Notes under the pieces: model-generated
Database searches by the model: none
Seen by the model: the letters and a program-made list of their open reading frames with translations, nothing else
What the model was told of the DNA's origin: nothing
Assembly (NCBI RefSeq): GCF_024502345.1
Contig: NZ_JALDNN010000001.1
Strand: one strand, 5' to 3'
Origin: Escherichia coli
GTDB taxonomy: Bacteria; Pseudomonadota; Gammaproteobacteria; Enterobacterales; Enterobacteriaceae
Length of the DNA stretch: 64,000 nucleotides
Translations under genes and position numbers: made by a program
Shown: in pieces, positions 38,065 to 50,390 of the stretch
How positions within the stretch are numbered: the first letter of the stretch is position 1
Layout of the letters: every line of letters begins with the position of its first letter

Positions 38065-39121
38065 GGCTTTGTTGAATAAATCGAACTTTTGCTGAGTTGA
38101 AGGATCAGATCACGTATCTTCCCGACAACGCAGACCGTTCCGTGGCAAAGCAAAAGTTCAAAATCACCAACTGGCCCACCTACAATAAAGCCCTCATCAA
38201 CCGTGGCTCCATAACTTTCTGGCTGGATGATGAAGCTATTCAGGCCTGGTATGAGTCAGCAACACCTTCTTCACGAGGCAGACCTCAGCGCTATTCTGAC
38301 CTTGCCATCACGACTGTGCTGGTCATTAAACGCGTATTCAGGCTGACCCTGCGCGCTGCGCAGGGCTTTATTGATTCCATTTTTTCTCTGATGAACGTTC
38401 CGCTACGCTGCCCGGATTACAGCTGTGTCAGCAGGCGGGCAAAGTCGGTTAATGTCAGTTTCAAAACGCCCACCCGGGGTGAAATCGCACACCTGGTAAT
38501 TGATTCCACCGGGCTGAAGGTCTTCGGTGAAGGCGAGTGGAAAGTCAAAAAGCATGGCCAGGAACGCCGCCGTATCTGGCGTAAGCTGCATCTCGCCGTT
38601 GACAGTAAAACACATGAAATCATCTGCGCTGACCTGTCGCTGAACAACGTTACGGACTCAGAGGCCTTCCCCGGGTTAATCCGGCAAACCCACCGGAAAA
38701 TCAGGTCAGCCGCCGCCGATGGCGCTTACGATACCCGGCTATGTCACGATGAACTGCGGCGTAAGAAAATCAGCGCGCTTATCCCTCCCCGAAAAGGTGC
38801 GGGTTACTGGCCCGGTGAATATGCAGACCGTAACCGTGCAGTGGCTAATCAGCGAATGACCGGGAGTAATGCGCGGTGGAAATGGACAACAGATTACAAC
38901 CGTCGCTCGATAGCGGAAACGGCGATGTACCGGGTAAAACAGCTGTTCGGGGGTTCACTGACACTGCGTGACTACGATGGTCAGGTTGCAGAGGCTATGG
39001 CCCTGGTACGAGCGCTGAACAAAATGACGAAAGCAGGTATGCCTGAAAGCGTGCGTATTGCCTGAAAACACAACCCGCTACGGGGGAGACTTACCCGAAA
39101 TCTGATTTATTCAACAAAGCC
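38065..39121 (+). mobile_element. IS903-group element (IS5 family), 1057 bp, copy 1, with 9-bp TSD TCTCAAAAG
   Basis: Terminal GGCTTTGTTGAATAAATC inverted repeats; TCTCAAAAG at 38056-38064 and 39122-39130. Confidence 0.92.
38097..39065 (+). CDS. IS903-type transposase
   Basis: 322-codon ORF ...KQKFKITNWPTYNKALINRGSITFWLDDEAIQAW..., recognised as IS903/IS102-type. Confidence 0.92.
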   Translation: MKDQITYLPDNADRSVAKQKFKITNWPTYNKALINRGSITFWLDDEAIQAWYESATPSSRGRPQRYSDLAITTVLVIKRVFRLTLRAAQGFIDSIFSLMNVPLRCPDYSCVSRRAKSVNVSFKTPTRGEIAHLVIDSTGLKVFGEGEWKVKKHGQERRRIWRKLHLAVDSKTHEIICADLSLNNVTDSEAFPGLIRQTHRKIRSAAADGAYDTRLCHDELRRKKISALIPPRKGAGYWPGEYADRNRAVANQRMTGSNARWKWTTDYNRRSIAETAMYRVKQLFGGSLTLRDYDGQVAEAMALVRALNKMTKAGMPESVRIA

Positions 39122-39494
39122 TCTCAAAAGTGCAACTAACCGTTATGAAGTACAGGCTAAAGACACCCAGGATGAGATCACTGCCCTCTTTCTGTTACGC
39201 CAGAAATGCAGTAAGGACCTGATTGCCCGTGGTGAAAATTTTGTTAATCGACTGGCGAATACACCGAAAGAGTTTGATAAATCCTGGAGCGAATTGAAAG
39301 CGGAAATCGCTGAATTTGATAACGTGGTGGAAAAACTGGAAGAAGAATACCGCGCATCACATATTGGTAAAGGAACGGCTGCTGCGGGGGTTGCCGTTGG
39401 GGCGGGGGTCGCCGCATTTGCCCCTACGGCTGCGCTGGCGGTCGCAACAACTTTTGGTACAGCATCCACGGGTACCGCTATTGCTACTATAAGG

Positions 39495-40840
39495 GCTTCC
39501 CCGGCATGTCAACGCCGGTTTTATAGTTTCTGTCTGCTCGTCAGTAAAATAAAGGGGAGAGACTGCGGTACTATAAACGGCCATGATAAATCGTTATCGA
39601 TTCGGGCCCTGATGAAAGACGCGCGTGAGGTTCTTGTTCGTTAAGCGGATACGTATATCCTGTACAATAGCCAGATAGGCCTCACGGGGTCTAACCCTTT
39701 TTCATCAACGAGTTGCAGGTCAGATGGTTATACTGCTTTGTGCTTTAGCTGGCTGAGTACAGCCTGAAATCATCACCGTAATGCAACGATGCCCAGCACA
39801 GCCTCGCGTTTTTGGCGGCGATGGCTACAACAGCCCGCCAGTACCCCCTGCGCTCAACCAACTTACAAACCCAACGGCTGAATGAGTCAGTCCTTTTCTC
39901 TGCACCAATCAAAACCGAACGGGCCCCCTGAACCAGAAGCGTTCGCAGATATGAATCGCCCGCTTTCGTTATTCTGCCAAGCTTTGATTTTCCGCCACTG
40001 CTGTACTGTGATGGTGTAAGTCCCAGCCAGGCTGCCAGTTGGCGTCCATTCTTAAAATCATGGGCATTACCGATACTGGCGACCAGCGCACAGGCCGTTG
40101 TGGGACCAATCCCTTTCAGTTCCATCAGTCGTTGGCTGCGGTGATCCGTTTTTGCCATGCGGGACAGGATCCGGTCATATTCAGCGATGTTATCTTCAAT
40201 GCGATTAATGTGTTCCAGCAGATCATCAACGCATTGCTGAACCTGAAGCGGCAAAGAATTCTTCTGTTCAGAAACGATGTGGCGCAGGGCATCTGTACTT
40301 TGTGGAGCGATGACGCCGAATTCAGATATCAAACCTCTTAATCGGTTATATGTTGCTGTTTTCTCTTCGATAAAACCTTGTCTGGTACGGTGTAGACATT
40401 GCATCGCCTGCTGGCTCTCATCCTTCACTGGCACGAACCGCATATGCGGGCGACGGACAGCCTCACAAATAGCCTGGGCATCAGCTGCATCATTTTTTCC
40501 TGATTTACCGGCCATGCGATATGGCGATACGAACTTTGCAGCCATCAAACGGGGCTCATGGCCATACTGCCGAAACACTCTTGCCCAGTAATGGGCGCCT
40601 GAGCACGCCTCCATCCCGATAACACAGGGAGGCAGGCTTGCAATTAACTCAGGAAGTGCAGCACGCGATACTTTAGGTTTAACCAGAACAGTTTTTCCAT
40701 TTTGATCAACGCAGTGAACAGCGAACACATTTTTAGCAAGATCGATACCGACAGTAGTGATAGTCATAACGAATCCCTCCAGGGCTATGTTTACCCCATG
40801 ATTGCACAAGAGCTAATCAGGCACATATCCAGGGGAAGTC
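39495..40840 (-). mobile_element. IS110-family insertion sequence (approximate ends); short upstream end and ~250-bp non-coding downstream end
   Basis: Contains an IS110-family DEDD transposase ORF; ends inferred from where flanking gene-X-like coding sequence stops and resumes. Confidence 0.6.
39745..40767 (-). CDS. IS110-family transposase (DEDD-type)
   Basis: MTITTVGIDLAKNVFAVHCVD...ACSGAHYWAR..., typical IS110-family N-terminus; GGAGGG RBS before ATG 40767. Confidence 0.85.
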   Translation of the reverse strand: MTITTVGIDLAKNVFAVHCVDQNGKTVLVKPKVSRAALPELIASLPPCVIGMEACSGAHYWARVFRQYGHEPRLMAAKFVSPYRMAGKSGKNDAADAQAICEAVRRPHMRFVPVKDESQQAMQCLHRTRQGFIEEKTATYNRLRGLISEFGVIAPQSTDALRHIVSEQKNSLPLQVQQCVDDLLEHINRIEDNIAEYDRILSRMAKTDHRSQRLMELKGIGPTTACALVASIGNAHDFKNGRQLAAWLGLTPSQYSSGGKSKLGRITKAGDSYLRTLLVQGARSVLIGAEKRTDSFSRWVCKLVERRGYWRAVVAIAAKNARLCWASLHYGDDFRLYSAS

Positions 40841-48900: not shown

Positions 48901-49333
48901 GTGGTGGCGCCAGTGCAATACGGAGTAGTTTCGGAGAAGTTATCCGGAATGGAGAAGTTGTAATACAGTCTCGCCGCACGTTCAGTCATGCAATCAATGG
49001 TCCTGTCGGTAAATGTACTCAAGCGCTTTTTCAAGCAATGCCAAGTGAAGAGAAAAAAGCTGGTTCGCTTATTCCTTACTCTATTAAGTCTCGTATTGAA
49101 CATCTTTTTACTGCACCAGGAGAAGGAGCGGACCACGCTATAGCTATAACGTCTCGCAATCTAAATTGGCTAATGTTTGTTGATCCTGCATGGGTAAAGG
49201 AATGGCTTATACCCCTTTTGGATTTAAAACATCCTGCAGCAGAACCAGTATGGAATGGTTATCTTCAGTGCAATGCTATGCCTTCAATTGCAGTAGCTGA
49301 ACTTATTAAACCAGCTTTTCTTAACCTTATCCC

Positions 49334-50390
49334 GGCTTTGTTGAATAAATCAGATTTCGGGTAAGTCTCCCCCGTAGCGGGTTGTGTTTTCAGGCAATAC
49401 GCACGCTTTCAGGCATACCTGCTTTCGTCATTTTGTTCAGCGCTCGTACCAGGGCCATAGCCTCTGCAACCTGACCATCGTAGTCACGCAGTGTCAGTGA
49501 ACCCCCGAACAGCTGTTTTACCCGGTACATCGCCGTTTCCGCTATCGAGCGACGGTTGTAATCTGTTGTCCATTTCCACCGCGCATTACTCCCGGTCATT
49601 CGCTGATTAGCCACTGCACGGTTACGGTCTGCATATTCACCGGGCCAGTAACCCGCACCTTTTCGGGGAGGGATAAGCGCGCTGATTTTCTTACGCCGCA
49701 GTTCATCGTGACATAGCCGGGTATCGTAAGCGCCATCGGCGGCGGCTGACCTGATTTTCCGGTGGGTTTGCCGGATTAACCCGGGGAAGGCCTCTGAGTC
49801 CGTAACGTTGTTCAGCGACAGGTCAGCGCAGATGATTTCATGTGTTTTACTGTCAACGGCGAGATGCAGCTTACGCCAGATACGGCGGCGTTCCTGGCCA
49901 TGCTTTTTGACTTTCCACTCGCCTTCACCGAAGACCTTCAGCCCGGTGGAATCAATTACCAGGTGTGCGATTTCACCCCGGGTGGGCGTTTTGAAACTGA
50001 CATTAACCGACTTTGCCCGCCTGCTGACACAGCTGTAATCCGGGCAGCGTAGCGGAACGTTCATCAGAGAAAAAATGGAATCAATAAAGCCCTGCGCAGC
50101 GCGCAGGGTCAGCCTGAATACGCGTTTAATGACCAGCACAGTCGTGATGGCAAGGTCAGAATAGCGCTGAGGTCTGCCTCGTGAAGAAGGTGTTGCTGAC
50201 TCATACCAGGCCTGAATAGCTTCATCATCCAGCCAGAAAGTTATGGAGCCACGGTTGATGAGGGCTTTATTGTAGGTGGGCCAGTTGGTGATTTTGAACT
50301 TTTGCTTTGCCACGGAACGGTCTGCGTTGTCGGGAAGATACGTGATCTGATCCTTCAACTCAGCAAAAGTTCGATTTATTCAACAAAGCC
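49334..50390 (-). mobile_element. IS903-group element, copy 2, inverted relative to copy 1, with 9-bp TSD CCTTATCCC
   Basis: Same terminal repeats as copy 1; CCTTATCCC at 49325-49333 and 50391-50399. Confidence 0.92.
49390..50358 (-). CDS. IS903-type transposase (copy 2)
   Basis: 322-codon ORF with translation identical to 38097-39065. Confidence 0.92.
   Translation of the reverse strand: MKDQITYLPDNADRSVAKQKFKITNWPTYNKALINRGSITFWLDDEAIQAWYESATPSSRGRPQRYSDLAITTVLVIKRVFRLTLRAAQGFIDSIFSLMNVPLRCPDYSCVSRRAKSVNVSFKTPTRGEIAHLVIDSTGLKVFGEGEWKVKKHGQERRRIWRKLHLAVDSKTHEIICADLSLNNVTDSEAFPGLIRQTHRKIRSAAADGAYDTRLCHDELRRKKISALIPPRKGAGYWPGEYADRNRAVANQRMTGSNARWKWTTDYNRRSIAETAMYRVKQLFGGSLTLRDYDGQVAEAMALVRALNKMTKAGMPESVRIA

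Follow-up and report, generated by a model that had tools for sequence, protein, structure and literature searches.

Two identical IS903B copies in inverted orientation in an Escherichia coli chromosomal island very probably arose by successive simple insertions

The DNA analysed here, a 64-kb stretch of Escherichia coli sequence that is called the window below, carries two copies of the insertion sequence IS903B that face opposite ways around a segment of about 10 kb. The two copies almost certainly inserted successively, each by simple insertion, into the thrW tRNA-Thr/proA island of the E. coli chromosome. Copy 2 was the first; it interrupts codon 1094 of the 1291 codons of a Dsr1-like SIR2 gene and is fixed in a clone that is present in several public datasets. 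Copy 1, which is found only in this window, followed and cut PDC-M09A 47 nt past its start. Each insertion generated its own 9-bp target duplication, and the segment between the copies is resident island DNA in its ancestral orientation. The source of copy 1 was probably copy 2 or another identical cellular copy, for example on a plasmid. Nothing found in the 64 kb of genome in view contradicts this course of events. The features of the region are the following.

38018-38064, + strand: PDC-M09A (gene X), first 47 nt, severed by IS903B copy 1
38056-38064: target-site duplication of copy 1, left, TCTCAAAAG
38065-39121, + strand: IS903B copy 1, 1057 bp, left terminal repeat 38065-38082, right terminal repeat 39104-39121; the younger copy, only in this window
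38097-39065, + strand: transposase reading frame of copy 1, 322 codons from TTG, DDE_Tnp_1_5 and DDE_Tnp_1 domains
39122-39130: target-site duplication of copy 1, right, TCTCAAAAG
39131-39487, + strand: PDC-M09A, middle fragment, between IS903B copy 1 and the IS110-family element
39488-40850, - strand: IS110-family element in PDC-M09A, 1363 bp, no target duplication, boundary ambiguous by 1 nt; private
40851-41292, + strand: PDC-M09A, 3' fragment
41292-42737, + strand: PDC-M09B (gene Y), intact, PADLOC match with E 1.7e-213
42774-45296, + strand: gene Z, intact, 840 aa, weak PDC-M09B-like match and precomputed YeeR_C Pfam hit
45486-45901, - strand: ars remnant, arsC with a 240-bp internal deletion (GGATA microhomology) and an arsB fragment
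46053-49333, + strand: Dsr1-like SIR2 gene, 5' part, codons 1-1093 and part of codon 1094, within the bracket
49325-49333: target-site duplication of copy 2, left, CCTTATCCC
49334-50390, - strand: IS903B copy 2, 1057 bp, reverse complement identical to copy 1; the older insertion
49390-50358, - strand: transposase reading frame of copy 2
50391-50399: target-site duplication of copy 2, right, CCTTATCCC
50400-50994, + strand: Dsr1-like SIR2 gene, 3' part, about 198 codons, outside the bracket

A repeat search of the 64-kb window returned one inverted pair (38061-39121 and 49334-50394, with 10212 nt between the arms), in which the 4 bases past the IS903B ends are a chance 3-of-4 match. When the copies, which a preliminary description had called identical, were compared directly, each measured 1057 bp and 0 mismatches were found. 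The 18-mer GGCTTTGTTGAATAAATC, the IS903 terminal repeat, marks all four element ends exactly and has no further occurrence in the 64 kb, where 0.06 chance matches would be expected. Each copy has a single IS5-family DDE gene, with domain matches to DDE_Tnp_1_5 at 3.4e-40 and DDE_Tnp_1 at 6.6e-33, and IS903 has been annotated with a 969-nt TTG transposase frame (PMC9282650). The earlier naming of the element as IS903 stands at the level of the IS903 group and can be refined: plasmid copies from E. coli, Salmonella and Citrobacter that are 100% identical over the 1057 bp are annotated 'IS5-like element IS903B family transposase', and by that annotation the isoform is IS903B. Length, perfect 18-bp repeats, DDE frame and 9-bp duplication all match IS903/IS903B (IS5 family, IS903 group), with no structural difference. 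The perfect identity of the two copies could partly reflect assembly polishing or gene conversion. The bracket had been put at 11 kb, which corresponds to the 11269 bp from the start of one copy to the start of the other. Measured with both copies included, the structure extends over 12326 bp; the DNA between the copies is 10212 bp long and includes 8849 bp that belong to no insertion sequence.

The direct repeats abutting copies 1 and 2 are exact, 9 bp and no longer, and the two duplications are distinct, as the preliminary description had stated. The chance of each 9-bp duplication is about 4^-9 = 4e-6. The thrW/proA island is also present in E. coli PSJ-29, where it is 99.8-100% identical and lacks both IS903B elements; each 9-mer is single-copy there, and the bracketed DNA is present in the same order and orientation, with every alignment block colinear on the + strand. 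SNPs relative to PSJ-29 are about as dense in the bracketed DNA, with 10 in 8857 bp, as beyond it, with 12 in 13097 bp. Site 1 is empty in all three compared loci, L001, L002 and L003.

The order of the insertions was deduced from a sister assembly, GCA_050022275.1, whose contig JBAOKM010000059.1 shows 0 mismatches to the window over 11.4 kb. This contig shares the arsC deletion and the IS5-type end with the window and shows the left junction of copy 2, while its site 1 is empty, its PDC-M09A is intact and its alignment blocks are colinear on the + strand. Since the sister has copy 2 with an empty site 1, copy 2 is the earlier insertion and copy 1 the later. Thus the single 9-mers and colinear DNA of PSJ-29, together with a sister without SNPs that bears one copy only, uphold the earlier claim of independent insertions. 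The right junction of copy 2 was found in 7 of 10 further contigs with the same OloA-like allele, from other samples; the window's PDC-M09B allele is not on record for these samples, and the comparison covers the right-hand side. All seven contigs that do carry the window's PDC-M09B allele (7/7) have an intact PDC-M09A upstream. In exact-product look-ups of the truncated Dsr1, the sister contig was retrieved only with the version starting at Met-23; versions from the annotated GTG start (V or M first) gave no match, nor did the reconstructed intact Dsr1 of the lineage. The gene Z look-up was uninformative because the window carries the common allele. A look-up of the 241-aa TTG frame at 51153-51878 gave only a truncated Logan contig. 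A different IS903 junction, at the position that corresponds to 51012 of the window, is carried by ERR3153746 and ERR3153747; it may be an adjacent deletion starting from copy 2 or a third independent insertion.

The architecture of the region, with identical inverted IS903B copies and intact ends, fits a composite transposon inserted in one piece, that is, a Tn903-like 12.3-kb unit bringing with it genes X, Y and Z, the ars remnant and part of the SIR2 gene. In Tn903 the IS903 copies are in inverted orientation around a passenger; the island pair is arranged likewise and has all four ends intact, so the outer pair could serve the transposase. Tn602, with direct IS903 copies, bears one shared 9-bp duplication, GTTGCTAAT, at its outer ends (PMC9282650). 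In contrast to this composite, which has moved, the island copies each have their own duplication. Moreover, the passenger of Tn903 and Tn602 is a resistance gene (IS903-aph(3')-I-IS903), whereas that of the island is 10.2 kb of resident DNA. A duplication shared by the outer flanks, named in the preliminary description as the sign of composite transposition, was looked for in both orientations and the flanks, TCTCAAAAG and CCTTATCCC, match in neither. In PSJ-29 and other genomes the inner DNA is contiguous with both flanks, with no element in between, and the boundary genes at both sides continue across the elements; the sister genome, in turn, has copy 2 only. In a search of PLSDB with a 23-kb query, no plasmid matched over more than 20% of the query, and the best-ranking hits fell on insertion-sequence and ars genes rather than on the defence genes. 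Either outer junction occurs in 0 of 5426 complete E. coli genomes, and the 12.3-kb unit was found in no other context among plasmids and complete E. coli genomes. The passenger DNA is in place in empty-site genomes, and a composite that moved is therefore refuted, in agreement with the earlier description; we regard one-piece insertion as vanishingly improbable.

Alternatively, intramolecular replicative transposition might have generated copy 1 from copy 2, or the copies might have recombined, and in either case the bracketed segment would be inverted relative to the ancestor. Both replicative and conservative pathways, as well as adjacent deletions, have been reported for IS5-family elements including IS903 (PMC11708052), and an inversion-type event would leave the copies inverted, as they are here. 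However, either process would leave the segment reversed and the two members of each duplication beside different copies; an insertion sequence would then lie between TCTCAAAAG and GGGATAAGG, whereas the assembly shows matched 9-mers around each copy. Every block is also colinear on the + strand with PSJ-29 and the sister contig. The matched duplications and the ancestral orientation of all blocks agree with the earlier statement that the copies have not recombined since insertion. As read from the sequence, inversion is refuted for the assembled molecule, this being one assembly with which an even number of inversions is compatible, and an origin by inversion is scarcely credible. Movement of the pair as a 12.3-kb unit, or inversion of the inner 10.2 kb through homologous recombination, would be possible in principle; neither event is seen in the sequence.

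The perfect identity of the copies also resembles a collapsed or polished repeat, and one or both copies could be an assembly artefact such as a misplaced repeat. This is very unlikely. At each site, the exact 9-bp duplication repeats a sequence that occurs once in the reference. For copy 2, the left junction was recovered independently in GCA_050022275.1 and the right junction in the seven further contigs from other samples. Copy 1 is known from this assembly alone, and its duplication would not come from a mis-join.

The two insertions interrupt two genes. Joining the three fragments of PDC-M09A gives an open frame of 281 codons, and removing the element and one duplication from the Dsr1-like SIR2 gene gives an open frame of 1291 codons. 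As had been claimed, both copies lie in candidate defence genes: in PADLOC, gene X matches the PDC-M09A profile (E 2.4e-120), and the 1291-aa SIR2 protein matches Dsr1 profiles (E 8.9e-86 and 2.8e-79, covering aa 23-363 and 663-1290) and has a Pfam SIR2_2 domain at aa 151-290 (1.5e-13). Dsr1 (defence-associated sirtuin 1) has an N-terminal SIR2 domain and a long C-terminal region, about 1200-1300 aa in all, which the island SIR2 protein fits, although its gene is interrupted. PDC-M09 is a PADLOC candidate system only, and a literature search for it found no paper; genes X and Y match its profiles, X being interrupted in this strain. PDC-M09A and Dsr1 are probably both inactive. The genes listed earlier for the bracket were right, except that the list omitted the 1363-bp IS110-family element in gene X, which is absent from loci L001 and L003. 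The mere fact that the copies lie in defence genes carries no significance, since defence-candidate coding sequence takes up nearly the whole of 37.1-56 kb.

The insertions could be independent and yet not neutral, if loss of PDC-M09 and Dsr1 had been selected, for example through relief of toxicity or through plasmid or phage entry, which would explain the clustered hits. In about 28 kb the island has five insertion sequences that PSJ-29 is without, and the first 25 kb of the window (1-25 kb) yielded none that close relatives lack. One gene of 846 bp was hit by two private elements, which belong to different families and whose sites are 357 bp apart in ancestral coordinates; against selection, a gene that is already dead needs no further hit to be inactivated. 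The island Dsr1 is also broken in two other lineages, by a nonsense codon at 664 in ET826 and in AP022494.1, where transposase and group II intron genes are present. On the other hand, Dsr1 seems intact in 7 of the 10 island copies listed, by called gene lengths, with a sequence-level check for the Z226-5 copy only. Shorter SIR2 calls in other genomes (1210, 1233 and 1269 aa) resembled truncations; the one in Z226-5 proved, on comparison of the sequences, to differ only in the choice of start site. IS903 has a preferred target motif, WTTYA-N9-TRAAW (PMC2577343). The two sites score 4/10 and 5/10 for it against an island mean of 3.9; neither stands out from the average, which was counted in favour of selection, and a hot-spot reading of the sites was rejected. 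Because islands can be dispensed with and are rich in AT (GC is 35-39% at the two insertion sites), relaxed selection or regional targeting would produce the same pattern as selection for loss. Selection for the loss of these genes is accordingly considered rather unlikely. Still more doubtful is the wider proposal that the insertions and the IS110-family hit may reflect a selected shut-off of defence in a circulating clone and that the 12.3-kb structure is possibly a new transposition-competent composite. If this were true, the composite would be able to carry PDC-M09B, gene Z and the truncated Dsr1 to plasmids.

The structure involves a known element and ordinary, already known insertion-sequence biology, and its importance beyond annotation is small. 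In annotation, PDC-M09A and Dsr1 should be treated as disrupted pseudogenes, and the 12.3-kb unit should not be entered as an acquired transposon. For the biology of E. coli, the region represents an island rich in defence-system candidates that is undergoing break-up by insertion sequences, and the empty-site reference and the intermediate sister genome document the in-place formation of a composite-like structure from two insertions.

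A repeat search of positions 36000-52500 returned one long inverted pair (38061-39121 and 49334-50394, arms 10212 nt apart). By direct comparison the elements proper are 1057 bp each, at 38065-39121 (copy 1) and 49334-50390 (copy 2); the 4 bases by which the pair runs beyond the element are a chance match (3/4). The preliminary description had reported two identical IS903 copies in inverted orientation and proposed to check their nucleotide identity; copy 1 is the reverse complement of copy 2 on the opposite strand, with every base equal over the 1057 bp. The 18-mer GGCTTTGTTGAATAAATC lies at all four element ends and is absent elsewhere in the window (chance expectation 0.06 matches). 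The transposase has IS5-family DDE domains (DDE_Tnp_1_5, 3.4e-40; DDE_Tnp_1, 6.6e-33), and plasmid copies annotated as IS903B in E. coli, Salmonella and Citrobacter match the element with 100% identity from end to end. The element agrees with IS903 (PMC9282650) in length, in the TTG-start 969-nt frame and in the 9-bp duplication. This is a known element with known behaviour; its relatives occur on at least 5000 plasmids, and an IS903-type element was found in 1948 of 5426 complete E. coli genomes, at a median of 2 and at most 47 places.

Insertions in the bracketed region and associated features
38097-39065, + strand: transposase frame of copy 1 (322 codons, 969 nt, TTG start)
49390-50358, - strand: transposase frame of copy 2
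38056-38064 and 39122-39130: target duplication of copy 1, TCTCAAAAG, abutting both sides
49325-49333 and 50391-50399: target duplication of copy 2, CCTTATCCC, abutting both sides
39488-40850: IS110-family element in PDC-M09A (1363 bp, no target duplication)

As had been claimed, each copy has its own distinct and perfect direct repeat of exactly 9 bp; by chance alone, a perfect repeat of this kind would border an element with a probability of about 4e-6. Matching outer flanks, which the preliminary description took as the mark of composite transposition, were not found when the flanks of the pair were compared in both orientations.

The window belongs to an E. coli chromosome. For positions 1-25000, 77 complete E. 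coli genomes match at 99.8% with at least 80% of the stretch covered. This part contains mhp genes, then a GC-rich (60-67%) heat-resistance island (clpK, kefB-GI, FtsH-like), which in Z226-5 adjoins the thrW island in the same arrangement. A genomic island extends from about 30.6 kb up to a tRNA gene:
58981-59056: tRNA-Thr (CGT), adjoining proA

The same island, without any of these elements, is present in E. coli PSJ-29 (NZ_AP027639.1) and Z226-5. A survey of insertion sites in related genomes had been proposed, and in PSJ-29 both are empty, with each 9-mer single (GCCAG-TCTCAAAAG-TGCAAC at site 1 and CTTAA-CCTTATCCC-TTGGAT at site 2). The alignment of the window with PSJ-29 consists of colinear + strand blocks of 99.8-100% identity, so the bracketed DNA is original to the island and keeps its ancestral orientation. 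Mismatches are equally dense inside (10 in 8857 bp) and outside (12 in 13097 bp) the bracket. Of the first 14 loci retrieved, 13 contain the exact 26-mer of empty site 2, and exact empty site 1 occurs in all three loci covering it. None of the 5426 complete E. coli genomes contained either outer junction. The matched duplications and the colinearity refute inversion through recombination as well as inversion through intramolecular replicative transposition, and uphold the claim that the copies have not recombined since insertion.

The order of insertion was obtained by an exact-product look-up with the truncated Dsr1 product reading into copy 2, from Met-23. It returned one contig, the sister contig JBAOKM010000059.1 (GCA_050022275.1), whose identity to the window is 100.000% over 35554-38064, 39122-39487 and 40850-49409. 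This contig starts within the same IS5-type element and enters copy 2 at the same junction, ending after 76 bp of it. The IS110-family element is missing from it, and site 1 is uninterrupted, with TCTCAAAAG single. Since this contig has copy 2 and an empty site 1, copy 2 inserted before copy 1. Three findings refute composite transposition of the pair: the outer flanks are not shared, there are genomes with empty sites, and this contig is an intermediate. Seven of 10 further contigs carrying the window's exact OloA-like allele, from ENA metagenome assemblies and SRA runs, also have the right junction of copy 2, and the two of them aligned over about 7 kb show no mismatch; in all seven contigs that share the PDC-M09B allele of the window (R50H), an intact 281-aa gene X lies upstream. 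In view of the target duplications, and of junctions seen in independent contigs, an assembly artefact is unlikely. The preliminary observation is confirmed, and its interpretation as independent insertions is supported. In a related lineage (Logan ERR3153746 and ERR3153747, L021/L024) whose OloA-like allele is the same and whose integrase is intact, an IS903 left end lies at a different position (window-equivalent 51012, 18 bp past the Dsr1 stop, copy-2 orientation), explained either by a third independent insertion or by loss of 50391-51011 in an IS903 adjacent deletion.

These results show two simple insertions at different times, each with a 9-bp staggered-cut duplication. Copy 1 probably derived from copy 2, or else from some other identical copy. 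From what is generally known of DDE transposons, its simplest route would be cut-and-paste from a replicated sister chromosome, given that the donor copy is still in place and that the insertion brought neither inversion nor deletion with it. Neither site resembles the published preferred IS903 target WTTYA-N9-TRAAW (PMC2577343), their scores being 4 and 5 of 10, where the island averages 3.9. In its present form the pair has the architecture of Tn903 and could in principle transpose as one piece, or have its inner segment inverted through recombination; neither event was seen. In a plasmid search none covered more than 20% of the region, the top matches being insertion-sequence and ars genes.

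Both copies had been placed in candidate defence genes, and profile matches bear this out. Copy 1 lies 47 nt past the start (38018) of gene X, which lies downstream of a WYL regulator and matches PADLOC PDC-M09A (E 2.4e-120). The IS110-family element follows 357 bp further on in ancestral coordinates, and the three fragments joined give an open 281-codon frame whose protein is identical to that of PSJ-29. Both insertions are private to the window's strain, and elements of two different families are thereby clustered in one 846-bp gene. Copy 2 lies after nt 3281 of the SIR2 gene (start 46053), within codon 1094 of 1291; this gene matches profiles for Dsr1 (E 8.9e-86 and 2.8e-79) as well as Pfam SIR2_2. 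Once copy 2 is taken out together with one duplication, the frame is open again and differs from PSJ-29 at 2 amino acids. Between them, gene Y matches PDC-M09B (E 1.7e-213), and gene Z (42774-45296, 840 aa) has weak matches only, among them a similarity to PDC-M09B (5.8e-05) that hints at a paralogue; a precomputed Pfam hit to PF27347 YeeR_C exists in a public collection, with none in the Pfam copy scanned here. Downstream of Dsr1, intact genes match OloB and OloA of Olokun:
51153-55956, - strand: intact block of three genes (240 aa without family match; 490 aa matching OloB, 4.8e-58, with LmuA-like C-terminus; 857 aa matching OloA, 2.9e-77)

This block resembles a system of the Olokun type plus one further gene. 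Landing in defence genes is unsurprising in itself, because 37-56 kb is nearly all defence-candidate coding sequence. Selection for switching off defence could be read from the five insertion sequences without counterpart in PSJ-29 within about 28 kb of island, from the lack of any beyond those of close relatives in window 1-25 kb, from the 846-bp gene struck twice and from Dsr1 decay in other lineages. However, these facts are equally explained if selection is relaxed on an island that is dispensable and AT-rich, and the adaptive reading appears improbable. Independent breaks in this island's Dsr1 occur in further E. coli lineages (L002, L028, L030, L031), with a nonsense codon at 664 in ET826 (L002), transposase and group II intron genes within it in AP022494.1 (L028) and several breaks in AP027877; judged from called gene lengths, the gene seems intact in 7 of the 10 island copies listed.

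Other lesions were found in the island. Relative to PSJ-29 (L001 12029-12268), arsC has a 240-bp internal deletion (junction 45648-45654, GGATA microhomology), common to the sister contig. An IS5/ISKpn26-type element (34432-35626, 1195 bp, TTAA duplication), not in PSJ-29 and 94% identical to the ISKpn26 copy of ET826, lies 22 nt into a small AlpA-like regulator gene; its right end is also common to the sister contig. An IS3-family element (57267-58524, 1258 bp, TTA duplication), whose junction is common to contigs L016-L020, breaks the island's tyrosine integrase. As integrase and AlpA-like gene are both broken, the island is probably immobilised.
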